Assembly: GCA_020639315.1 (NCBI GenBank)
Contig: JACKGM010000001.1
Location: 18,511-82,510 of the forward strand
Source: Candidatus Nomurabacteria bacterium
GTDB lineage: Bacteria > Patescibacteriota > Saccharimonadia > JAGOAT01
Reading direction: 5' to 3'
Length of the DNA: 64,000 nucleotides
The notes beneath the pieces are model-generated. The model made no database searches. It saw only the letters and a program-made list of their open reading frames with translations, and was not told where the DNA came from. Made by a program: the position numbers and the translations under genes. This document shows, one piece after another, positions 11,302 to 64,000 of the stretch. Numbering within the stretch: position 1 is the first letter of the stretch; each line of letters starts with the position of its first letter.

Positions 11302-11565
11302 GTCATCCTCCGAAACCCGCCCCTTGTCTTGTCATCCTCCGAAGCTCGGAGAGCTTACGGGGGATCTAGCATTTTGCATTTCCTATGACCAATTCAAATA
11401 CTGGATCTCCGGTATTACCCTTCGGGTAATCCGAAGATGACAGAGGAGAGAATTGTCATCCTCCGAAACCCGGAGGGTTTACGGGGGATCCAGTATTTCT
11501 GCATTGTGCGCCGTCATCCTCAAAGTCTAGCGACCTTCATCTGGAGCTAGACTTTGGGGATCCAG
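11302..11565. repeat. Family-A hairpin repeat cluster (5 units, both orientations) between convergent genes
   Basis: Units present: GTCATCCTCCGAAGCTCGGAGAGCTTACGGGGGATCTAG; rc GTCATCTTCGGATTACCCGAAGGGTAATACCGGAGATCCAGTATTTGAAT; GTCATCCTCCGAAACCCGGAGGGTTTACGGGGGATCCAGTATT; GTCATCCTCAAAGTCTAGC...GCTAGACTTTGGGGATCCAG. Confidence 0.92.
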
Positions 11566-13077: not shown

Positions 13078-13156
13078 ATTGTCTCCATTGTATTAATATC
13101 TATCCCCATCATTTAGATTTTAATCCAAGCTTAAGTAATTTGCAATCCGCGATACT

Positions 13157-13320
13157 TATAGCAAGTTAAAAACAAAACCAGACTTTTGACCCAACTATAG
13201 AGTCTATAAAGCTAGTTTTCTTACTCACCATATCTATGGATATGGCTCTTAAGAAGAACTAACTTTCTAGTTCTCTATAGTACAGCTCAAATTGTCCGGT
13301 TTTGTTTTGAGCTTGCTATA
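13157..13320 (+). mobile_element. MITE family B, full copy (164 bp foldback)
   Basis: Termini are TATAGCAAGTTAAAAACAAAACCAGAC...CCGGTTTTGTTTTGAGCTTGCTATA. The whole element is an imperfect palindrome centred on CCATATCTATGGATATGG. Confidence 0.9.
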
Positions 13321-13350
13321 CCCTGGGTGGAACCTGACTAATTTATAGTC

Positions 13351-14475: not shown

Positions 14476-14557
14476 TTTGTCATCCGCCCTTTGACTGAAG
14501 GAAAAGTCGATAATCCAGATTTCTTGAACACATTGCGTTATTTACTTTTGTTTTATT

Positions 14558-14718
14558 AACCCTGTTGCCATATAACCTCACGGCTTCAAAACTGCCATTT
14601 TTGCTCCAGACTAGCAAAACACTTCGCAGCGTAACTCCTGTTATGCTTTGTCGTGTTTTGGTATTCTGGAATAAAAATCATCAGCTTTGAACTCGCAAGT
14701 TTATATGGCAACAGGGTT
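14558..14718 (+). mobile_element. MITE family F (161-bp core, ATT on both flanks)
   Basis: Perfect 18-bp TIR AACCCTGTTGCCATATAA / TTATATGGCAACAGGGTT. It is 159/161 identical to the copy at 35363-35523. Confidence 0.92.
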
Positions 14719-14756
14719 ATTGTTAGTTTTCTTGAGTATCTGAAGGCGTAAAAGTG

Positions 14757-14845: not shown

Positions 14846-14866
14846 TATACTCATAATTTGTTACTT

Positions 14867-14926
14867 CGGGGTCAGACCCCGTCAATTTATATCTGTTAAG
14901 GATGCCAACTTCGGGGTCAGACCCCG
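14867..14926 (-). repeat. Twin-palindrome module, type C
   Basis: CGGGGTCAGACCCCG at 14867-14881 and 14912-14926 (45-bp period). The core TTTATATCTGTT lies between them. Confidence 0.9.
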
Positions 14927-14962
14927 AATAATAGATACCAAAAAAATGAGGGGTCGTGCTTA

Positions 14963-18289: not shown

Positions 18290-18657
18290 TAGGATTGAAT
18301 TCTGGTAATGCGAAATACTGGATCCCCCGTAATCCTCTATGAGGATTCGGAGGATGACAATACACCCCAGTCATCTTCCAAAATCCTGTAAGGATTTATG
18401 GGAGATCCATCTCCCCAGCGTCATCCTCGACTTTTCCGCCCTTCATTTGAAGGAAAAGTTGGGGATCCAGACTTCTAGATAATGGGTTAGGGTTTAGGTA
18501 ATACAGTTACTTTTTATGCTTATTGTTAGTTTTCTGGATACCCAGAGCAAGCTCTGAGTATGACGGATGCAAATGCAGAGATACTGGATCCCCCGTAAGT
18601 TCTCCGAACTTCGGAGGATGACAGAAGAGGAGTAGGTTTCGGAGGATGACAAGACAA
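18290..18657 (+). repeat. 368-bp direct repeat, copy 1 (itself a cluster of family-A hairpin units)
   Basis: I read it base for base as identical to 20559-20926 (offset 2269 bp), running from TAGGATTGAATTCTGGTAATGCG to GGAGGATGACAAGACAA. Confidence 0.93.
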
Positions 18658-18855: not shown

Positions 18856-19021
18856 TATAGCAAGCTCAAACCAAAACTAGACAATTTGAGCTGTACTATA
18901 GAGAACTATAAAGGTAGTTCTTCTTAAGAGCCATATCCATATAGGTATGGTGAGTAAGAAAACTAGCTTGATAGACTCTAGAGTTGGGTCAAAAGTCTGG
19001 TTTTGTTTTTAACTTGCTATA
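18856..19021 (-). mobile_element. MITE family B, full copy (inverted relative to 13157-13320)
   Basis: TATAGCAAGCTCAAACCAAAACTAGAC...GGTTTTGTTTTTAACTTGCTATA, collinear with the other copies. Confidence 0.9.
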
Positions 19022-19108
19022 CGATGAGGAGCAATAGTGGCAGTTATAGACCATAAGATACAGTCAAAAGTACAGGTTTTGTTTTTCGGGGGCTATAGAA
19101 TTATCATG

Positions 19109-20347: not shown

Positions 20348-20440
20348 GAAACCCCCTTACTATATAACTTAATTGGTCTTTATATATTGACTATAACAGT
20401 CTTGAGAAAAATAGTCCACAGAACCAACCTTGCTACAAAA

Positions 20441-20530
20441 GCCATATCCAAAGATATGGTGAGGAAGAAAACTAGCTTTATAGACTCTAGAGTTGGGTCA
20501 AAAGTCTGATTTTGTTTTTAACTTGCTATA
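20441..20530 (-). mobile_element. MITE family B, right half only
   Basis: GCCATATCCAAAGATATGGTGAGGAAGAAAACTAGCTTTATAGACTCTAGAGTTGGGTCAAAAGTCTGATTTTGTTTTTAACTTGCTATA. Confidence 0.85.
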
Positions 20531-20558
20531 GCTTCATGACAACGGGGTTAGTAGATTC

Positions 20559-20926
20559 TAGGATTGAATTCTGGTAATGCGAAATACTGGATCCCCCGTA
20601 ATCCTCTATGAGGATTCGGAGGATGACAATACACCCCAGTCATCTTCCAAAATCCTGTAAGGATTTATGGGAGATCCATCTCCCCAGCGTCATCCTCGAC
20701 TTTTCCGCCCTTCATTTGAAGGAAAAGTTGGGGATCCAGACTTCTAGATAATGGGTTAGGGTTTAGGTAATACAGTTACTTTTTATGCTTATTGTTAGTT
20801 TTCTGGATACCCAGAGCAAGCTCTGAGTATGACGGATGCAAATGCAGAGATACTGGATCCCCCGTAAGTTCTCCGAACTTCGGAGGATGACAGAAGAGGA
20901 GTAGGTTTCGGAGGATGACAAGACAA
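20559..20926 (+). repeat. 368-bp direct repeat, copy 2
   Basis: Identical to 18290-18657. It is followed (20927-20996) by extra tandem family-A half units. Confidence 0.93.
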
Positions 20927-21016
20927 GGGGCGGGTTTCGGAGGATGATAGGAGAGAGATGGGTTTCGGAGAATGACAGAAAGGGAGTAGGGTTTCAAAAA
21001 CTAGACTTCAATCAAC

Positions 21017-28620: not shown

Positions 28621-29048
28621 ATTTGTATCCGTCATACTCAGAGCTTGCTCTGGGTATCCAGAAAACTAACAACCAACATTAAAAGTAACTGGGTTAACTC
28701 AATACATTCAATCCATTATCTAGAGTTCTGGATCCCCAACTTTTCCTTCAAATCAAGGGCGGAAAAGTCGAGGATGACCCAAACTCCTGTCATCCTCCGA
28801 AACCCGTCCCTCTCTTGTCATCCTCCGAAACCCGCTCCTTGTCTTTGTTATCCTCCGAAGCTCGGAGAGCTTACGGGGGATCCAGTATTCCTGCATTGCC
28901 TTGAGATTCAATTCAAATACTGGATCTCCGGTATTTCTCTAAAGAGAAATCCGAATATGACACGAAGGGGGGCGGAAATTTGGGCTGTTGGCAGAGAAGG
29001 GATTGTCATCCTCCGAAACCCGGAGGGTTTACGGGGGACCTTGTATTG
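28621..29048. repeat. Family-A hairpin repeat cluster
   Basis: Begins GTCATACTCAGAGCTTGCTCTGGGTATCCAG and includes tandem half units and head-to-head doublets. It ends GTCATCCTCCGAAACCCGGAGGGTTTACGGGGGACC. Confidence 0.92.
28789..28935 (+). repeat. 147-bp direct repeat, copy 1 (family-A composite) left of the RelE/DinJ cassette
   Basis: 144/147 identical to 29750-29896. The differences are two G/A changes in CCGAAACCC versus CCAAAACCC, and GTTATCC versus GTCATCC. Confidence 0.9.
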
Positions 29049-29070
29049 CTACTTTATAAACATCTATCCC

Positions 29071-29331
29071 CTACCTGTAGAGCTGACTATGTGTGCCGAC
29101 AGCTACAAAGAGTACCTTACTTTCAGTTATGACTTGAAAATGTAGCCTTAAATCGCCTCCTGCACTTATAGAACGAAACCCTAACCACTCCCCTTTTAAC
29201 CCGTGATTACGAAGCGAGGGATTGGCTACGTCTTGTAAAAATAAAGCAACAGCAGCTCTAGCCTGTTGCTGTTTCTTGAGAGGTAGTTTCTCGAATTGTT
29301 TATTGAACACTTTAGTAAAATCAATGTCCAT
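29071..29331 (-). CDS. RelE/ParE superfamily toxin (YafQ-like)
   Basis: 86 aa. FNKQFEKLPLKKQQQ...LRNHGLKGEWLGFRSISAGGDLRLHF matches the RelE/ParE fold pattern. It lies 8 nt downstream of the antitoxin gene. Confidence 0.7.
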   Translation of the reverse strand: MDIDFTKVFNKQFEKLPLKKQQQARAAVALFLQDVANPSLRNHGLKGEWLGFRSISAGGDLRLHFQVITESKVLFVAVGTHSQLYR

Positions 29332-29338
29332 AATTTTG

Positions 29339-29620
29339 CTATTTCATTAAGCTATCCAGGTGGGCTAATGCCCCTTTTGCCCCCTTAGTATGTGTAATAT
29401 CACGGTCAGCTACATAATCGGCTTTAGCGTCCCTCATGATCTGTTCTAGGTAGGGAGTAGGCTCTAGGTTAGTACTCAAAACGACACGCCTATCTCGTAA
29501 AGTCTGTTTTACGACCATATTTACAAGAGCGGTACTAGACACACCTAACTCGGTAGCAAAAGTCTTTAGCTCCTGTTTGGTTTTCTCGTCAATCTTAATA
29601 CTTAACTGTACGCTACCCAT
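29339..29620 (-). CDS. RelB/DinJ-like ribbon-helix-helix antitoxin
   Basis: 93 aa. The N-terminal VQLSIKIDEKTKQELKTFATELGVSSTALVNMVVKQTL is an RHH-type segment like DinJ. Confidence 0.65.
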   Translation of the reverse strand: MGSVQLSIKIDEKTKQELKTFATELGVSSTALVNMVVKQTLRDRRVVLSTNLEPTPYLEQIMRDAKADYVADRDITHTKGAKGALAHLDSLMK

Positions 29621-29749
29621 AGTATAGTCATTGTATATCTATCGTATATGTATGTCAATACGATCGATATTGCTTTACAGCCCATAGTATATTCAATGGG
29701 GCCTGAAAGTATCTATCCTGATAACGACTTTAGTGAACGGTATTGTACC

Positions 29750-29896
29750 GTCATCCTCCAAAACCCGTCCCTCTCTTGTCATCCTCCAAAACCCGCTCCT
29801 TGTCTTTGTCATCCTCCGAAGCTCGGAGAGCTTACGGGGGATCCAGTATTCCTGCATTGCCTTGAGATTCAATTCAAATACTGGATCTCCGGTATT
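29750..29896 (+). repeat. 147-bp direct repeat, copy 2, right of the RelE/DinJ cassette
   Basis: See copy 1. The offset is 961 bp. Confidence 0.9.
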
Positions 29897-30103
29897 ACCC
29901 TTCGGGTAATCCGAAGATGACACGGGAAGGGATTGTCATCCTCCGAAACCCGGAGGGTTTACGGGGGATCCAGTATTCCTGCATTGCCTTGAGATTCAAT
30001 TCAAATACTGGATCTCCGGTATTACCCTTCGGGTAATCCGAAGATGACACGGGAAGGGATTGTCATCCTCCGAAGTTCGGAGAACTTACGGGGGACCTTG
30101 TAT
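29750..30103. repeat. Family-A hairpin repeat cluster with an internal ~100-bp tandem duplication
   Basis: The block ...CCAGTATTCCTGCATTGCCTTGAGATTCAATTCAAATACTGGATCTCCGGTATTACCCTTCGGGTAATCCGAAGATGACACGGGAAGGGATTGTCATCCTCCGAA... occurs twice in tandem. Confidence 0.92.
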
Positions 30104-30129
30104 CTCGTACTCCTACCAGGAGGCCACCC

Positions 30130-32167: not shown

Positions 32168-32204
32168 AGATTGTCCAAATTCCTCGATCCATCCTCTATG
32201 TCTT

Positions 32205-32372
32205 GTCATCCTCCGAAGTTCGGAGAACTTACGGGGGATCCAGCATTTCTGTATTACTGGGCAACTAATTCAAATACTGGATCTCCGGTATTACCCTCCG
32301 GGTAATCCGAAGATGACGAGGAGAGGGTTGTCATCCTCCGAAGTTCGGAGAACTTACGGGGGATCCAGTATT
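32205..32372. repeat. Family-A hairpin repeat cluster between convergent genes
   Basis: GTCATCCTCCGAAGTTCGGAGAACTTACGGGGGATCCAG occurs twice, flanking an inverted GGTATTACCCTCCGGGTAATCCGAAGATGAC unit. Confidence 0.92.
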
Positions 32373-32409
32373 CCTGTATTTAATCGGTATTCACTTCAAA
32401 TACCAAGCA

Positions 32410-34143: not shown

Positions 34144-34149
34144 AGCCTA

Positions 34150-34158
34150 ATTGTATCA
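34150..34158 (-). promoter_or_regulatory. Extended -10 (TGATACAAT) 6 nt before the proS ATG
   Basis: Minus strand reads TGATACAAT-TAGGCT-ATG. Confidence 0.55.
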
Positions 34159-34211
34159 CCTTTCTCCACAGTAAGACATTCCCCTAAAAGTGACCCCCAT
34201 TTTTGCCATTT

Positions 34212-34270
34212 CAAGGGCACCCCTTGAGCATTTATATCTGTAAAAAAATTATTTTCAAGGGCACCCCTTG
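34212..34270 (-). repeat. Twin-palindrome module, type D (CAAGGGCACCCCTTG x2)
   Basis: Palindromes at 34212-34226 and 34256-34270 (44-bp period), with core TTTATATCTGT. It lies between divergent proS and infC. Confidence 0.9.
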
Positions 34271-34360
34271 AAAATAGCAAAAGCCCTAGAAGGTTGGATT
34301 TGTGTATTTTTAAGAAATATGATAAGTTAGGTAATGAATAAATGATGAAGATTATCAAGT

Positions 34361-34897
34361 TTGAATAACAAAGCGTCACAACCTAGGCGTAACTTCGTGC
34401 GGATCAACCAGCAGATCCGTGCTGATCAAGTGCGAGTATTGTCTGAAGATAAAGAGATGCTGGGGGTAATGAGTGTATCCGAAGCTCTTAATAGAGCCAA
34501 AGAGTCTGAACTAGACTTGGTAGAGATATCTCCAAATGCCAAACCTCCTGTGGTACGCATCGTCGACTGGGGTAAATACCGCTATGAAAAAGAAAAACAA
34601 GCCAAGCAAAATCAGAAAAATCAAAAGCAACAGGAGCTCAAACAAATCCGCTTGAGTCTCAAGATTAGTCCTCACGATCTAGATATCAAGATCGGCCAAG
34701 CCAAAAAGTTTTTGACCAAAGGTCACAAAGTCAAGCTAACCGTCAGGCTCAAAGGGCGCGAGATGCATCATAGCTACCTTGGTAAAGAGGTATTGGAGAA
34801 ATCTCTGGAAATCCTTGCTGACTCTGCCAAAGCCGATAGCACCGTCCGTAAATCAGGTCGGGAGTTCTCGATCACGGTCTCACCTGTCAAGAAGTAG
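34361..34897 (+). CDS. infC: Translation initiation factor IF-3
   Basis: 178 aa with RINQQIRADQVRVLSEDKEMLGVMS and KPPVVRIVDWGKYRYE. The only in-frame start after the upstream stop (34346-34348) is TTG 34361, consistent with the atypical starts known for infC. Confidence 0.9.
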   Translation: MNNKASQPRRNFVRINQQIRADQVRVLSEDKEMLGVMSVSEALNRAKESELDLVEISPNAKPPVVRIVDWGKYRYEKEKQAKQNQKNQKQQELKQIRLSLKISPHDLDIKIGQAKKFLTKGHKVKLTVRLKGREMHHSYLGKEVLEKSLEILADSAKADSTVRKSGREFSITVSPVKK

Positions 34898-34901
34898 TCT
34901 T

Positions 34902-35126
34902 CTACCAGATATTTGGGTCACGATTTAGTAAAGCTTTCCAGAAATCGAATATTCTTTTCGCTCTACCCCTCATACCTTCAGCATTCTTGCCTAACCTACT
35001 AAACAGATGTGTCTTAATGCTGTCGATAAGGGCTGTCGCCCTAGATGAACCCACATTAAGATCTAACCCTGATTCTCCACGATAATCATCTTTAAAGATG
35101 CCTAAATTGGGCTTAATATCCCTCAT
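34902..35126 (-). CDS. Hypothetical small protein
   Basis: 74-aa ORF starting 2 nt after the upstream ORF stop. No motif recognised. Confidence 0.4.
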   Translation of the reverse strand: MRDIKPNLGIFKDDYRGESGLDLNVGSSRATALIDSIKTHLFSRLGKNAEGMRGRAKRIFDFWKALLNRDPNIW

Positions 35127-35128
35127 TT

Positions 35129-36072
35129 CTAACTCACCTCCTGCCCTAGTGCTGCTCGTATTACAAACCTTGTGACCCCTGTATTACCTAGATCTAATGG
35201 GGCTACATAGCCCCTGGGTACCCTATAATCTTCCCTCGTATCGACAATCTGCCGCCTTACCCTATCTGGCACTTTCTCAACCTCTGATTTCCTATTACGA
35301 TAGTTCACTACTCTAGAGAGACCAACTGCCCCTAAGAAGGCACCTAGCCCGGCAAATCTATTAACCCTGTTGCCATATAACCTCACGGCTTCAAAACTGC
35401 CATTTTTGCCCCAGACTAGCAAAACACTTCGCAGCGTAACTCCTGTTATGCTTTGTCGTGTTTTGGTATTCTGGAATAAAAATCATCAGCTTTGACCTCG
35501 CAAGTTTATATGGCAACAGGGTTATTGCTCGAAATATCATTAACCCCCAGCCCAGCCATTCCACTAGTAGGAATATCTACAAACCAGTCCCTCAGCCTTT
35601 GGCGATTTTGATATTTTCTTATAGTCTCTGGATATTTTTTGGATTCAGCATAAAACTTCAATCCGTTGATTAGGGCTTGCATCAAGCGCTGATTGTATCT
35701 TATAGTGAACTCTTCCCACTCTAATTTCTCCTCAGAATCTAGGTCGGGCAATAGCTTTAAGTAGATTTGACCTAAAGAGACCAATAACCTTGCATTATCA
35801 CCATCTTGCTCTGGTTGAATAAACTGCCAACTATCACCTTCATCGTCTACTGACAGGCCAGTAAAGACAATCTCTAGTTCTGATAAATCTGGCTTATCCT
35901 CAATATTGGGCAGCCCAAAAGCATCATAATACCCTCTCAAGTATTGAAGGAGATCCTTTTGCCATTCTTCCTCAACTAAACCCTCACCAAATAGCATATG
36001 AAGTGCTGGACTATCCTCAATGGTAATCTTAGGTAGTTTTCTCTCGTAACTATTGTTTGTTTCAGGGGTCAT
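35129..36072 (-). pseudogene. Orphan gene split by a 161-bp MITE (track ORFs 35506..36072 and 35129..35422)
   Basis: The MITE core 35363-35523 sits between the two ORFs. It supplies the stop of the upstream part and the first 20 codons of the downstream part. Removing 161, 164 or 167 bp joins them in frame (...GVNDISS-N-RFAGLGAFLG...), giving about 259 aa. Confidence 0.7.
35363..35523 (+). mobile_element. MITE family F inserted in a coding region
   Basis: Same TIRs, flanked by ATT (35360-35362 and 35524-35526). It separates two same-strand ORFs that become one on excision. Confidence 0.92.
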
Positions 36073-36114
36073 ATTCCCACAGCCTCTCCTTTATTAATAA
36101 CCACTAATCTAACA

Positions 36115-36278
36115 TATAGCAAGCTCAAAACAAAACCGGACAATTTGAGCTGTACTATAGAGAACTAGAAAGGTAGTTATTCTTAAGAGCCATATTCATA
36201 GATATGGTGAGTAAGAAAACTAGCTTTATAGACTCTAGAGTTGGGTCAAAAGTCTGGTTTTGTTTTTAACTTACTATA
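36115..36278 (-). mobile_element. MITE family B, full copy
   Basis: TATAGCAAGCTCAAAACAAAACCGGACAATTTGAGCTG...GGTCAAAAGTCTGGTTTTGTTTTTAACTTACTATA. Confidence 0.9.
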
Positions 36279-36330
36279 AATACGAACAAACTGCAAGCAT
36301 AAGCCTAATTAACCCCAGACCAATAACTAT

Positions 36331-37299
36331 CTAACCATCACTTTTTGTCAGCCTAGGATGACCCACCCTAAGGCAAATCACTACACCTCCTAAATCAGCC
36401 TGACCTATTGGATCACCTTCTTCACTGTCATCCTTATGCTCTTCCTTATACTTTAGAGAAATAGGCATTACGGCTACTCGACTCTCCCTACCCTCTCTAC
36501 CCATCATCCACTCCACTAGCCTCGATAATCTGCGTTTCCTCTCTATCTCTATCTTGATACGGGCACTATCGACTACGCCCTCGATTAACGCCTTATTCAA
36601 CCAACCATCAAAATTTAAGGCATCTTGCTCAGAAATATAACCAGAATTAGCCATGATATATTTTTCACAGATACCAAAAAACTGCGTTCTATTATTTCCC
36701 TCAAGTCCTGCCGCATCTGCAGTCGCCTCTGCTTGACTCATGCCCCCTGATACATACTCATTATAATCTAGATTCTTAGAAGCTGCATGCTGATCAGTGA
36801 ATTCAAACCACTGGTCTAGCTTTTCTTTCTGCCCGATATCCAGCTTACTCACTAGTGATGTATACTCTAGCCTGATTGTTTCTAGTGACAGTTCAAGCTT
36901 ACTATCAGCCAATGCATTTTGATAAACCTTCGGTAAAGATATGACTAGGATTGACCTATCCTCCAACTGCTGTTTAGCCATACCTAGCCCACCCAGTCTC
37001 TCAATAAGTTCAGCACTTTGATCAGAATGACCCCGCCTATCACAGGGGTGTATTTCTGCTATGCTACCCCCGCTCAACTCCCCACTATCAAAAAACACGA
37101 TCAACTGATCTAGCCCCAAAATACCCTTTTTGGATTCAGCGTCTATAGCCTCATTAACGAATCTCCAAAAAGCCTCTTCCAATCGATCAAAGTCAATAAC
37201 TCGCCCCAAGGCTTGATTGCTACTATCTATACAGATAGCCACTTCAGACGTTGGTCTTTTCTCGCCAGTACCAGTATTTGCCCCTTCCCCATTTACCAT
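36331..37299 (-). CDS. Hypothetical protein
   Basis: About 322 aa from MVNGEG (rc ATG 37297-37299), preceded by GAGGGAG 5 nt upstream. The track start 37317 is TTG. No motif recognised. Confidence 0.6.
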   Translation of the reverse strand: MVNGEGANTGTGEKRPTSEVAICIDSSNQALGRVIDFDRLEEAFWRFVNEAIDAESKKGILGLDQLIVFFDSGELSGGSIAEIHPCDRRGHSDQSAELIERLGGLGMAKQQLEDRSILVISLPKVYQNALADSKLELSLETIRLEYTSLVSKLDIGQKEKLDQWFEFTDQHAASKNLDYNEYVSGGMSQAEATADAAGLEGNNRTQFFGICEKYIMANSGYISEQDALNFDGWLNKALIEGVVDSARIKIEIERKRRLSRLVEWMMGREGRESRVAVMPISLKYKEEHKDDSEEGDPIGQADLGGVVICLRVGHPRLTKSDG

Positions 37300-37400
37300 G
37301 CTACTCCCTCTTGCCAATTATTAATAGCTGTATTTAACCTCTAATATACCATGTAATTCAATGTTTTGCAAGCATCAGGCTTACCTCAACCTAGCTTAAG

Positions 37401-37429
37401 TTGCTATTTATCCAAATATAAGATATAAT
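37401..37429 (+). promoter_or_regulatory. Sigma70-type promoter of rpmI-rplT (TTGCTA-17-TATAAT), -10 ends 7 nt before the ATG
   Basis: TTGCTA at 37401-37406, a 17-nt spacer, TATAAT at 37424-37429, then CACCATT and ATG 37437. No SD. Confidence 0.6.
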
Positions 37430-37436
37430 CACCATT

Positions 37437-37631
37437 ATGCCAAAATTGAAGACTAGCAAAACCGCCAAGAAGCGAATCAAGGTCACCTCGAGTGGACTTT
37501 TGATGCGTCGCAGAGCTACTCGCGCTCACAAATTGTCAATCAAATCAGGTGCTAGAAAGCGGGAATTTACCAAAGAGTTTGTGTTAAACAATACCGAAAC
37601 CAAGAAAATCAAGAAATTAATCGGAGTCTAA
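37437..37631 (+). CDS. rpmI: 50S ribosomal protein L35
   Basis: 64 aa: MPKLKTSKTAKKRIKVTSSGLLMRRRATRAHKL. Confidence 0.95.
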   Translation: MPKLKTSKTAKKRIKVTSSGLLMRRRATRAHKLSIKSGARKREFTKEFVLNNTETKKIKKLIGV

Positions 37632-37989: not shown

Positions 37990-38384
37990 GTCACCAAACC
38001 AAAACCCCGCAGGGATTTATGGGAGACCCACCTCCTCTGTCATCTTCGGATTACTCTTTAGAGTAATACCGGAGATCCAGTATTTGAGTTAGCCACAGGC
38101 AATATGGAATGCTGGATCCCCCGTAAGTTCTCCAAACTTCGGAGGATGACAATACAATACACAATGCCGAATACTGGATCCCCCGTAAACCCTCTGGGTT
38201 TCGGAGGATGACAAGACAATGCCATTAACTTAAGAAAAAGCCAGTATCTTTTGACATCCTATTAAAGCTTGATTTGTACATTGAATAAAACTTGCAAAAG
38301 CTTAAGTTAATGGCATTGAGATGACAGGAGAAGGACGGGTTTCGGAGGATGACAATCCTCTCCTCCGTCATCTCCGGTATTTGA
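37990..38384. repeat. Family-A hairpin repeat cluster downstream of rplT
   Basis: Includes GTCACCAAACCAAAACCCCGCAGGGATTTATGGGAGACCC, GTCATCTTCGGATTACTCTTTAGAGTAATACCGGAGATCCAGTATTTGAG and several inverted units. Confidence 0.9.
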
Positions 38385-39060: not shown

Positions 39061-39066
39061 ATTATA
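39061..39066 (-). promoter_or_regulatory. -10 box TATAAT formed at a MITE-B terminus, 6 nt before the gmk ATG
   Basis: Minus strand reads ...GTATGCTATAAT-CTCTCT-ATG. TATA (39063-39066) is the MITE end and AT (39061-39062) is flank. Confidence 0.5.
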
Positions 39067-39226
39067 GCATACCCAAAACAAAACCGGACAATTTGGGATT
39101 ACTAATAAAGAGCTAGAAAGTTAGTTCTTTATATGAACCTTACTTATAAGTAAGGTGAATAGAAAAACTAGATTTGTAGACTTTAGTAGTGGGTCAAAAG
39201 GCTGGTTTTGTTTTGAGTATGCTATA
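39063..39226 (-). mobile_element. MITE family B, subfamily 2, full copy
   Basis: TATAGCATACCCAAAACAAAACCGGACAATTTGGG...GGGTCAAAAGGCTGGTTTTGTTTTGAGTATGCTATA. Its left terminus abuts the gmk start. Confidence 0.9.
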
Positions 39227-39258
39227 TATCATAGGATTTGTGACTATACTGAGCATTT

Positions 39259-43379: not shown

Positions 43380-43400
43380 ATTATAGCATTCCCCCGATGT

Positions 43401-43460
43401 CGCGAACTGTTCGCGGTTTTTGCCACTTTGCCAGATTAGAAATGTCGCGAACTGTTCGCG
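43401..43460 (-). repeat. Twin-palindrome module, type E (CGCGAACTGTTCGCG x2)
   Basis: Palindromes at 43401-43415 and 43446-43460 (45-bp period). The spacer is GTTTTTGCCACTTTGCCAGATTAGAAATGT. It lies 13 nt from the -10 of the sugar transferase gene. Confidence 0.9.
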
Positions 43461-43543
43461 GTTTTTGCGCCAGTGCTTAGTGTTTCTTATAAACTCGATA
43501 AGTGCCGTATCTTGCCCCATACTCTTCATGAGTTTTGCAACTT

Positions 43544-43603
43544 CGGGGTCAGACCCCGTTATTTTATATCTGTTGGGAAGGTCAGTTTCGGGGTCAGACC
43601 CCG
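43544..43603 (-). repeat. Twin-palindrome module, type C
   Basis: CGGGGTCAGACCCCG at 43544-43558 and 43589-43603 (45-bp period), with core TTTATATCTGTT. It lies upstream of the sugar transferase operon. Confidence 0.9.
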
Positions 43604-43665
43604 ACAACACAAAAACAAAGAGGGACGGTTATGGGGTGGTGAGGTTATAAGGGAGTAGGTCTATT

Positions 43666-44934: not shown

Positions 44935-45029
44935 ATCGTATGTTATAATTTTACCATGAGTATTACTCCTCTAAACCAGCAATCCTCTGCGAGTCTAGTG
45001 GGAGCAAAAGCGGACAATCTTTGGCTACT

Positions 45030-45193
45030 TATAGCAAGTTAAAAACAAAACCAGACTTTTGACCCAACTCTAGAGTCTATAAAGCTAGTTTTCTTCTTCA
45101 CCATATCTATGGATATGGCTCTTAAGAAGAACTAACTTTCTAGTTCTCTATAGTACAGCTCAAATTATCCGGTTTTGTTTTGAGCTTGCTATA
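45030..45193 (+). mobile_element. MITE family B, full copy
   Basis: Near-identical to 13157-13320 over its full length. Confidence 0.9.
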
Positions 45194-45279
45194 CTACCCT
45201 AGGGTACAAGACACCCAAATTTTGTTTTAAAGAGTCTATACAAATAACCTTGAGCCAGCTGAAGTAATCAGACTATTAC

Positions 45280-48849: not shown

Positions 48850-49252
48850 TACTACTACTCCATCTGGAGTCTCATGCAGTAAAGAATAAGCTGTAGCCCG
48901 TCATATCTTTTAACATTACTATTCAAATTAAGTTGCCAAAGTGCCAAATCAAACCCCAGTCTCGTTTCTTCTGTGGGAGGCTAGATCACCAACGTTGAAG
49001 TCCTCTGGGAATACTAGCTCACTATTCATATCCATACTGATATTGTAACACCTTGGCAAGAAATAAAATATTAGATACATAAACGGGATACTCGCCACTC
49101 GTTGCTTACATCAAATCACTATCGAATTGAATACAAGTCTTGAATATCCCGTATTTACAATTCGATATTGGCTAGTGCGCCGATATTAATGTGATGTAAG
49201 CAAATTAATCCTAGCATAGTGCTTACGCTTCTAGCAACCATTTCACCCATTT

Positions 49253-49311
49253 CAAGGGCACCCCTTGCAGTTTTCTATCTGTAAGAGATGCTTTTTCAAG
49301 GGCACCCCTTG
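49253..49311 (-). repeat. Twin-palindrome module, type D
   Basis: Palindromes at 49253-49267 and 49297-49311 (44-bp period), with core TTTCTATCTGT. Confidence 0.9.
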
Positions 49312-49403
49312 CATTATAATTCTCACTTCTCCCCAGTCATTACCTATACCCACCCTACTAGCCCTGGCAGCATTGGACCGAGATCACAGATATTCTAAAA
49401 TAT

Positions 49404-49535
49404 ATTACTGGATCCCCCGTAAACTCCTTCGGAGTTTCGGAGGATGACAGGAGAGGGGCGAGTTTTGAATATGATAGGAGTTGGGTCACCAAACCAAAAT
49501 CCCACAAAGATTTATGGGATATCCAGTATTTGAAT
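49404..49535. repeat. Family-A hairpin repeat cluster
   Basis: rc GTCATCCTCCGAAACTCCGAAGGAGTTTACGGGGGATCCAGTAAT, and GTCACCAAACCAAAATCCCACAAAGATTTATGGGATATCCAGTATTTGAATT. Confidence 0.9.
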
Positions 49536-50424: not shown

Positions 50425-50750
50425 GTAGTTTCCCCTGGAACCTTGGGAGATGACAATAACCTCTGCTGTCATTTTCCAAAATCCCGCCCCTATTCTCGTT
50501 ATCTTCCAAATTTCCTTTAGGAAATTATGGGAGCTCCACCCTCCTCCTGTCATCTTCGGATTACCCCTTGGGGTAATACCGGAGATCCAGTATTTGAATT
50601 AGACCCATAATAATGCAAAATACTGGATCCCCCGCAAGTTCTCCGAACTTCGGAGGATAACAATGCTCCCTCTGTCATCTTCCAAATTTCCGTAGGAAGT
50701 TATGGGGCACTTTCCTATTACTATTTAAGAGATCCAGTATTTGAATTTGG
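50425..50750. repeat. Family-A hairpin repeat cluster in a divergent intergenic region
   Basis: Includes GTCATCTTCGGATTACCCCTTGGGGTAATACCGGAGATCCAGTATTTGAATT, rc GTTATCCTCCGAAGTTCGGAGAACTTGCGGGGGATCCAGTATT, and GTCATCTTCCAAATTTCCGTAGGAAGTTATGGGG. Confidence 0.9.
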
Positions 50751-52150: not shown

Positions 52151-52367
52151 ACTGGATCCCCCGTAAGTTCCCCGAACCTCGGAGGATGACAGAAGTCGAG
52201 TCACCAGCCCAAATTTCCACCCTACTTTCGTGTCATCTTCCAAATTTCCATAGGAAATTATGGGATCCAATATTTGAGTTGAATCCCGAGGAATGCAAAA
52301 TACTGGATCCCCAGTAAACCCTCTGGGTTTCGGAGGATGACAAGAGAGGGGCGGGTTTCGGAGAGTA
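52151..52367. repeat. Family-A hairpin repeat cluster between convergent genes
   Basis: Includes GTCATCTTCCAAATTTCCATAGGAAATTATGGGATCCAATATTTGAG and two inverted GGATCC...GGAGGATGAC units. Confidence 0.9.
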
Positions 52368-55995: not shown

Positions 55996-56101
55996 ACTTT
56001 CCCCTAGTGTTAATGTCTTATGAGTTTTTATTATATCGCACACTGCTAATATATCCCAATAAACCTGGCCCAGCAACAAACTTGCCCTCTAGCCAAACTG
56101 T

Positions 56102-56161
56102 GGCGAACTGTTCGCGGTTTTTGCCACTTTACCAGATTGGAGATGTCGCGAACTGTTCGCG
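56102..56161 (-). repeat. Twin-palindrome module, type E
   Basis: GGCGAACTGTTCGCG at 56102-56116 and CGCGAACTGTTCGCG at 56147-56161 (45-bp period). The spacer is GTTTTTGCCACTTTACCAGATTGGAGATGT. It lies upstream of glmS. Confidence 0.9.
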
Positions 56162-62140: not shown

Positions 62141-62218
62141 TTATCATTTAGTAGCAACTGCCTGGATAAATATAGGGCTTTTGGGGGTTCCCAAAAAGTG
62201 CAAAATACTTAAATGCGA

Positions 62219-62291
62219 GATATTAGATCCCCCGTAATCCCCTATGAGGATTTGGAGGATGACAAAAGAGAGGCGGGTTCCGAAGGACGAC
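62219..62291 (-). repeat. Family-A unit plus half unit
   Basis: The rc reads GTCATCCTCCAAATCCTCATAGGGGATTACGGGGGATCTAATATCTCGC. Confidence 0.85.
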
Positions 62292-63622: not shown

Positions 63623-63786
63623 TATAGCATACCCAAAACAAAACCAGATAATTTGGGACTACTAATAAAGAGCTAGAAAGTTAGTTCTTTTTTGTGAACC
63701 TTACTTATAGTAAGGTGAATAGAAAAACTAGATTTGTAGACTTTAGTAGTGGGTCAAAAGGCTGGTTTTGTTTTGAGTATGCTATA
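63623..63786 (-). mobile_element. MITE family B, subfamily 2, full copy
   Basis: Near-identical to 39063-39226, with a handful of substitutions and a 1-nt indel in the centre. Confidence 0.9.
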
Positions 63787-64000
63787 CTACTATTATAACA
63801 TTTGGCTTAGGATTTTTATCAAAAAAGCAAACAATTTTGGCTAGATAATAAACTAAGTGACCAACAATCTGCCTAACTTTTGGCAAAAATAATAATGCCG
63901 TTGCTTGTAAAACAGCTCACAAAAGTATGATCGTAAATCGTCCAAATAAACACAACCAAAAACTTTCGACCAATTGGGGAATTCTTGGGGATCCAGAACT

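Follow-up and report, generated by a model that had tools for sequence, protein, structure and literature searches.

A 161-bp element at positions 35363-35523 of the 64,000-nt stretch analysed here (hereafter the window; positions 18,511 to 82,510 of contig JACKGM010000001.1, 'Candidatus Nomurabacteria bacterium' assembly GCA_020639315.1) is very probably a recently mobile, Tourist-like, non-autonomous DNA transposon, i.e. a MITE (miniature inverted-repeat transposable element), that disrupts a protein-coding gene. It is short and non-coding, has terminal inverted repeats (TIRs), is flanked by a target-site duplication (TSD) that can be read from filled and empty sites, occurs in dispersed near-identical copies and shares its TIRs with an element that encodes a transposase, and on these grounds it was placed in the MITE class. 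We call it family F, a new family of a well-known kind of element, with no new mechanism involved. The element, its second copy in the window and the two interrupted open reading frames (ORFs) are the following:

35363-35523, no strand assigned: copy 2 of MITE family F, 161 bp, non-coding, near-palindromic over its full length, lying within codon Asn183 of the host gene
35363-35380, plus strand: left TIR, AACCCTGTTGCCATATAA; the first 20 nt of the element are the same as both ends of a 1084-bp insertion sequence (IS) in metagenome contig L088
35506-35523, minus strand: right TIR, TTATATGGCAACAGGGTT, the perfect reverse complement of the left TIR
35360-35362, no strand assigned: left TSD copy, ATT, from the empty/filled comparison with metagenome contig L001
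35524-35526, no strand assigned: right TSD copy, ATT, from the same comparison
14558-14718, no strand assigned: copy 1 of MITE family F, intergenic, with ATT at 14555-14557 and 14719-14721 (repeat family D11)
35506-36072, minus strand: N-terminal fragment of the split gene, 188 aa, of which 183 are native and NPVAI and the stop come from the MITE (NCBI H6792_00270 / MCB9834454.1)
35129-35422, minus strand: C-terminal fragment, a 97-aa ORF whose native coding part is 35129-35362 (77 codons and stop) (NCBI H6792_00265 / MCB9834453.1)

Removal of 164 nt in silico, i.e. the element and one ATT, leaves a single 259-aa ORF on the minus strand. This reconstructed protein was used as query in a word-indexed search of 5.8 billion proteins, which returned only two matches: the N-terminal half itself (H6792_00270) and P0001, a protein of 215 aa with 95% amino acid identity that is unbroken over the junction, reading ...GVNDISSNRFAGLGAF... 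(also GVNDISSNRFAGLG). P0001 is encoded on the 1448-bp contig L001 (ENA ERZ27309317 k141_547344), which is 95-97% identical to the window on both sides of the element. Its empty site reads GCAAATCT-ATT-GCTCGAAAT (TCT-ATT-GCT; L001 DNA GCAAATCTATTGCTCG), and the filled site of the window reads GCAAATCT-ATT-[161 nt]-ATT-GCTCGAAAT. Since the empty site carries a single ATT, the insertion measures exactly 164 nt and consists of the 161-nt element plus a 3-bp duplication of ATT. The initial annotation, made from the sequence alone, had named the lack of any uninterrupted homologue as a refutation, which is not borne out, and the empty site is exactly the one obtained by taking out the core and one ATT. 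Its proposal that the family was recently mobile is likewise supported, since related populations carry both a filled and an empty allele.

One more, distant homologue, P0124 (287 aa, E 4e-18), came from an exhaustive HMMER search through 1.84 billion cluster representatives. In BLASTP it is 31% identical to the reconstructed protein (pairwise E 3e-28) over residues 24 to 253, with no break at residue 183. It is encoded in a metagenome-assembled genome (MAG) labelled 'Candidatus Saccharibacteria' (GCA_017983775.1), two genes from rpmI-rplT, as in the window neighbourhood. The native part of the N-terminal fragment is collinear with both P0001 and P0124, and in every relative without the element the two halves form one gene. 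That excision of 161, 164 or 167 nt fuses the frames without a stop had been stated before and proved correct, with ORFs of 260, 259 and 258 aa, respectively. This three-way outcome is arithmetically trivial and weak alone, since all three lengths are 2 mod 3; it gains meaning because real homologues run continuously over the junction. Also correct was the earlier description of two same-strand ORFs with MITE-encoded ends: both lie on the minus strand, the upstream one finishing on NPVAI and a stop, and the downstream one receiving its TTG start and first 20 codons (MLVWGKNGSFEAVRLYGNRV) from the MITE. NCBI annotates the two fragments as separate hypothetical proteins, and annotators should treat H6792_00265 and H6792_00270 as two fragments of one gene.

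The split gene is located between infC (34361-34897) and rpmI (37437-37631). Comparison of the reconstructed window gene with L001 gave a ratio of non-synonymous to synonymous substitution rates (dN/dS) of 0.18, with 21.5 synonymous and 14.5 non-synonymous differences, which marks it as a real gene instead of a chance ORF, one that was under purifying selection and functional until recently. The initial annotation called it an orphan gene, which slightly overstates the case: although lineage-restricted and unmatched in Pfam, it has the distant syntenic homologue P0124 and the dN/dS value just given. The L001 allele has a TGG to TGA change at codon 37 (W37 to stop in genetic code 11; L001 553-555), at which gene callers divide it into ORFs of 36 aa and 215 aa. 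This stop may have disrupted the gene independently, or else be a variant of the assembly or the strain. Since the gene was hit separately in both lineages, by the MITE in one and by the codon-37 stop in the other, these sequences suggest that it is currently dispensable.

The encoded protein has an acidic N-terminal part (net charge -15, residues 1-183), a glycine-rich hydrophobic stretch at about residues 172-201 that is cut mid-way by the insertion, and a basic C-terminal tail (net charge +6). Modelling of the reconstructed protein with AlphaFold2, on an alignment of three sequences, gave a mean pLDDT (predicted local distance difference test) of 40.7, which made the result unusable and too poor for a fold search. 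The infC-rpmI-rplT cluster, which is usually contiguous, is broken in the window by three opposite-strand ORFs (34902-37317, minus strand) of 74 aa, 259 aa (the split gene) and 328 aa; Pfam gave no family for the reconstructed protein or for either of these two neighbours. On the contig of the distant MAG (L124) the 287-aa homologue and an unrelated 301-aa ORF occupy the same place beside rpmI-rplT, and BLASTP detected no similarity between the 301-aa neighbour and the 328-aa upstream neighbour in the window.

The anatomy of the element given in the initial annotation was confirmed on the sequence. The termini AACCCTGTTGCCATATAA and TTATATGGCAACAGGGTT form a perfect 18-bp inverted repeat, and the two window copies are identical at 159 of 161 positions (98.8%), differing at positions 48 (C/T) and 134 (C/A); both are preceded by T-ATT and followed by ATT-G. 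When up to three mismatches were allowed, the window contained four occurrences of the TIR 18-mer, i.e. the four element ends, against an expectation of 0.09 from shuffled sequences. In all six frames the 161-bp element contains stops or peptides of at most 43 aa only, and its concatenated six-frame peptides had zero matches among the 5.8 billion proteins when we looked for copies inside called ORFs. As DNA the element folds into a hairpin of -41.4 kcal/mol (z -8.3), and its coding strand as RNA forms an almost perfect hairpin of -79 kcal/mol (z -10). Rfam covariance models run across the window gave no family at gathering score, so no described intron or structured RNA was matched. Beyond the window, an 18-mer scan of 185,579 species-representative genomes gave 28 single matches in unrelated taxa, which is about the chance level, and no pairs; viral contigs gave 0 matches. 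The same scan of metagenomes gave 87 loci, 85 of which were single chance matches, and paired matches were present at two loci only, L097 and L088. Contig L097 carries a third copy of the element (157/161, 97.5%), which sits among the same short repeat families that crowd the window.

The other paired locus is the IS. It occupies positions 177-1260 of L088 (1084 bp), has termini that are identical to those of the MITE over 20 of 20 nt and has ATT as its left flank; an autonomous-type element with the same TIRs, which the initial annotation had proposed to look for, is thus present in a metagenome. The IS encodes one 320-aa ORF with matches to HTH_Tnp_4 (PF13613, 3.1e-10), DDE_Tnp_4 (PF13359, 3.2e-24) and PF01609 (1.4e-9), all three above the Pfam cut-offs, and with the motifs VDGTE145, MDSGF220 and PVEHANG263. 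Against the NCBIfam model IS5_4 (NF033581) it scored 62.6 bits with a cut-off of 140, which makes it related to, and not a member of, that curated equivalog. The transposase family has 2562 matches, mostly on contigs of about 1-1.5 kb, as expected because repeats break assemblies. Its nearest annotated relatives are cyanobacterial, including Nostoc punctiforme, at 40-46% identity, and carry the PGAP name 'transposase family protein'. We regard the L088-type IS as a candidate autonomous partner of IS5 / PIF-Harbinger type.

The TSD of family F is 3 bp, a length that the initial annotation had called compatible with the sequence; this was decided by the empty site, by the flanks of related ISs and by copies in finished plasmids. 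Within the window the direct repeat of period 164 is at most TATT, so that a longer duplication would have to be TATT, the element then being asymmetric and 160 nt long. The flanks of IS copies on metagenome contigs L117-L123 conform to A-N-T at either end, the middle base often being different. A related IS (transposase 55% identical, TIR AGACCTGTTGCTAAATAGG) is flanked by CGT/CGT in L130 and by ATT/ATT in L127 and L129. The finished plasmids of Leptolyngbya boryana and Nostoc punctiforme contain three copies that read AAT-AGA[G/C]TTGT...CTCT-AAT. Canonical Harbinger elements also produce 3-bp duplications (PMC12730594). A TA duplication, as made by IS630 / Tc1-mariner and Stowaway-like elements, was considered for family F, its appeal being that almost all IS and MITE copies read TA-ACCCTG...CAGGGT-TA and that the A-N-T flanks would suit a TA duplication within a palindromic ANTANT target. 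This model predicts an insertion of 161 nt and the empty site TCTATTATTGCTC; the observed values are 164 nt and TCTATTGCTC. The CGT/CGT flanks in L130 and the DDE_Tnp_4 partner transposase also count against it, and the TA model was rejected.

From the shared termini we infer that mobilisation of the MITE most likely happens in trans, through the DDE transposase of an IS of about 1.08 kb. Transposases of the IS5 / PIF-Harbinger type make staggered cuts in the target, 3 nt apart, and so leave a 3-bp duplication; the sites preferred here are A-N-T, mostly ATT. One copy inserted at the ATT for Asn183 (AAT when read on the coding strand) in the 259-codon lineage-restricted gene, where the 164 extra bases shift the frame and introduce stops. 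The predicted product ends after 183 native and 5 element residues; this N-terminal fragment is acidic and apparently soluble. Severed from it would be the hydrophobic, glycine-rich segment and the basic tail at the C terminus (77 codons), their codons persisting only as an ORF with a TTG start inside the element hairpin. This effect on the protein is deduced from the reading frames, and the gene would most likely lose its function or give a shortened product, not two working proteins.

Two further assemblies carry the filled allele. L138 (GCA_020428505.1, 'Candidatus Saccharibacteria bacterium' KC853) begins inside the element and shows the junction of the MITE with the C-terminal half; over 700 nt, which span the C-terminal half, the 74-aa ORF and infC, it matches the window at 100% identity. 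L137 (ENA ERZ27309321 k141_135736, 1-1413) contains the N-terminal half followed by an element copy that is 161/161 identical to the window copy at 35363-35523, and thereby shows the other junction. Past the element its sequence switches to another locus, where a further gene starts (ATTGTGATTAATAG...), and another element flank lies in its tail. The N-terminal half of L137 is a block mosaic of haplotypes, with 18 sites of the window type, 13 of the L001 type and 0 private ones. Either L137 recombined at the MITE, or two strains that occur together were fused into a chimera during co-assembly. The contig nonetheless confirms the gene-element junction, and both haplotypes are present in one study. 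Over window positions 34700-35430 the DNA of H6792 ('Candidatus Nomurabacteria bacterium') and KC853 ('Candidatus Saccharibacteria bacterium') is 100% identical over 700 nt and the proteins are identical; since their phylum-level labels differ despite identical DNA, at least one label is wrong.

A second insertion lies just upstream of the split gene:

36117-36276, no strand assigned: second, unrelated MITE (families D1/D4/D12), 160 bp, TIR TAG[C/T]AAG[C/T]T[C/A]AAAACAAAACC, with TA at 36115-36116 and 36277-36278

This MITE lies 44 nt upstream of the ATG of the split gene and is missing from L001, where the empty site AACA-TA-AATACG gives an insertion of 162 nt. Other copies at 13153-13321 and 45026-45194 have TA/TA flanks, and further copies of the family are found at about 18856-19022, 20367-20533, 39063-39229 and 63623-63789. 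The comparison points to a second insertion polymorphism, with an IS630/Stowaway-like TA duplication. There are thus two insertions within 750 bp of one gene, both polymorphic between co-occurring strains. Tentatively, and with a small probability only, two or more MITE families (Tourist-like with 3 bp and Stowaway-like with TA) may be in an active burst in this uncultured, streamlined lineage of ultra-small cells and reshape its genes at the population level, and the split of this membrane-associated gene might be kept for a useful soluble N-terminal domain.

Several observations weigh against the interpretation of the 161-bp element as a recently mobile MITE served by an L088-type transposase. 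The allele in L001 comes from a single short contig and itself carries a premature stop. The L097 copy has unequal flanks (ATT/ATA), and several IS copies have mismatched 3-bp flanks (AGT/ATT, AAT/ATT, ACT/AAT). As for the ISs, one right flank adjoins unlike left flanks in the pairs L132/L134 and L127/L129, which indicates that IS-spanning contigs are frequently chimeric or recombinant, and the mismatched IS flanks are probably to be attributed to this. A tblastn search for an L088-type transposase found none in the 64-kb window, so that a resident partner would be hypothetical. The sequence common to MITE and IS is the terminal 20 nt in exact form (23 nt at 96% with the L119 copy), with nothing detectable inside, so that the MITE is not a simple internal-deletion derivative. 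Finally, the G+C content of L088 is 50% and that of the window 42%, and L088 therefore probably comes from another organism.

Three other explanations were weighed. One is a functional fission of the gene, the initial annotation having spoken of two potentially expressed halves: an N-terminal protein of 188 aa, which is soluble, and a C-terminal one of 97 aa or less, with the TTG of the MITE as its start, would both be made, and selection would keep the split. NCBI calls both ORFs as proteins, the filled allele with an identical MITE is found in three assemblies, and the C-terminal part has acquired no stop or frameshift since the insertion. Still, the TTG start lies inside the -79 kcal/mol RNA hairpin, the minus strand in and around the element yielded no promoter-like site, and the nonsense mutation in the empty allele suggests a dispensable gene; the differences in the C-terminal part (3.5 synonymous, 2.5 non-synonymous) are too few to detect selection. 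We consider fission unlikely, and independent expression of the C-terminal half is judged distinctly unlikely as well. An AGGAG motif lies 17 nt upstream of the TTG of this half, a distance that is too large. The missing Shine-Dalgarno sequence was dropped as an argument against its translation, since proS, infC and rpmI also lack one. As a separate observation, the regions upstream of rpmI, infC and proS (37409-37436, 34334-34360 and 34144-34170) contain no Shine-Dalgarno sequence and rpmI has a TATAAT-like box that ends about 7 nt before its ATG, which together suggest leaderless or very short-leader mRNAs.

It is very unlikely that the empty allele of L001 is a revertant produced by precise excision, and that the element acts as a reversible on/off switch of the gene. 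A perfect 3-bp repeat does flank the element, both states occur in samples of one study (ERZ27309317 and ERZ27309321), and excision would preserve the frame whether 0, 1 or 2 ATT copies stay behind. On the other hand, the distant homologue P0124 shows that the uninterrupted state is ancestral, and L001 differs at about 5% of the flanking sites, as expected of a different lineage and not of a recent derivative. The second MITE, 44 nt upstream of the gene, is missing from L001 too, and two insertions are a more parsimonious account than precise excision on two occasions; the absence of a transposase of this type from the window by tblastn also speaks against excision. An assembly artefact, in which the repeat was misthreaded into a gene that is intact in the true genome, has hardly any probability. 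Repeat-crossing metagenome contigs are chimeric elsewhere, as seen in the locus jump and haplotype mosaic of L137 and in the swapped IS flanks of L127-L134, yet each junction is reproduced in an independent assembly (the N-terminal one in L137, the C-terminal one in L138), and the 3-bp duplication, clean and placed precisely at a single ATT of the empty site, is not something that a misassembly would produce. Insertion of a MITE into a formerly continuous gene therefore remains our preferred explanation.

The window contains several other repeats, as follows:

11322-11505, 18545-18645, 20814-20999, 28838-30112 and 32196-32380: examples of a short hairpin repeat (families D2, D3, D5, D7, D8, D10)
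38073-38235, 49397-49471, 50584-50672, 52151-52364 and 62212-62286: further examples of the hairpin repeat
18290-18589 and 20559-20858: a 300-nt repeat (D6)
34197-34270 and 49238-49311; 14857-14927 and 43534-43604; 43398-43460 and 56099-56161: paired palindromes (D14-D16)

The hairpin repeat, ...CTGGATCCCCCGTAA-[stem-loop]-CGGAGGATGACA..., has dozens of intergenic copies, often in tandem with a period of about 125-127 or about 28 nt, and this load of repeats resembling repetitive extragenic palindromes is very high for a genome that is expected to be streamlined. The two copies of the 300-nt repeat are 100% identical, are spaced by 2269 nt and are part of a larger recent duplication that includes repeat clusters. 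At several intergenic sites short palindromes occur in pairs about 30 nt apart (CAAGGGCACCCCTTG ... CAAGGGCACCCCTTG; CGGGGTCAGACCCCG twice; TGTCGCGAACTGTTCGCG twice), which could be binding sites or bidirectional terminators.

Family F can be compared with several known systems. The Nezha MITE of Anabaena and Nostoc (Zhou et al., 2008) has, as summarised in PMC3184786, filled and empty orthologous sites, a stable hairpin and TIRs in common with ISNpu3, which occurs only in another species. Like Nezha, family F is a MITE of bacteria in the size range of about 130-170 bp, forms a hairpin of high stability and has direct repeats at its flanks; its recent mobility is likewise seen from filled versus empty orthologous sites, and its TIRs are shared with an IS that probably belongs to another organism. 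It differs from Nezha in its host, a Saccharibacteria/Nomurabacteria-type MAG, in its TIR sequence and in its insertion within a coding region. Bacterial repeats that enter protein genes have been described as RPE in Rickettsia, as ERIC and BOX/RUP, and as MITE-ORF fusions in Anabaena (PMC3184786). With these, family F has in common that a small palindromic repeat lies in or is fused to an ORF and that codons of the element are appended to host ORFs. RPE insertions are in-frame and leave the protein intact, whereas family F adds 164 nt (2 mod 3), has stops in the sense frame and truncates the product. An RPE-like in-frame coding repeat was ruled out, the host frame reading NPVAI and then a stop. 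In the literature searched, no description of MITEs in Saccharibacteria or Patescibacteria was found.

Family F resembles the eukaryotic Tourist elements of the PIF-Harbinger group in having a partner with DDE_Tnp_4 and HTH_Tnp_4 domains and a 3-bp duplication at an A/T-rich, near-palindromic target. It differs from them in being bacterial and in its preferred target, which is ANT/ATT; the reported preference is TWA for Tourist elements and TNA for IS1031. ISs of the IS5 family (ISL2, IS1031 and IS427 groups) make duplications of 2-4 bp, and the partner transposase of family F, with DDE_Tnp_4 and HTH_Tnp_4 domains and a short 3-bp duplication, is similar to them, while its IS5_4 score lies below the cut-off. 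Family F is a clean natural case of a bacterial MITE caught between its filled and empty states, for which the TSD is resolved, a candidate transposase family is available and the ancestral gene can be reconstructed. It also shows that members of the candidate phyla radiation with reduced genomes can host active DNA transposons that inactivate genes. What makes it valuable is the unusual completeness of its documentation, together with the lineage of its host.

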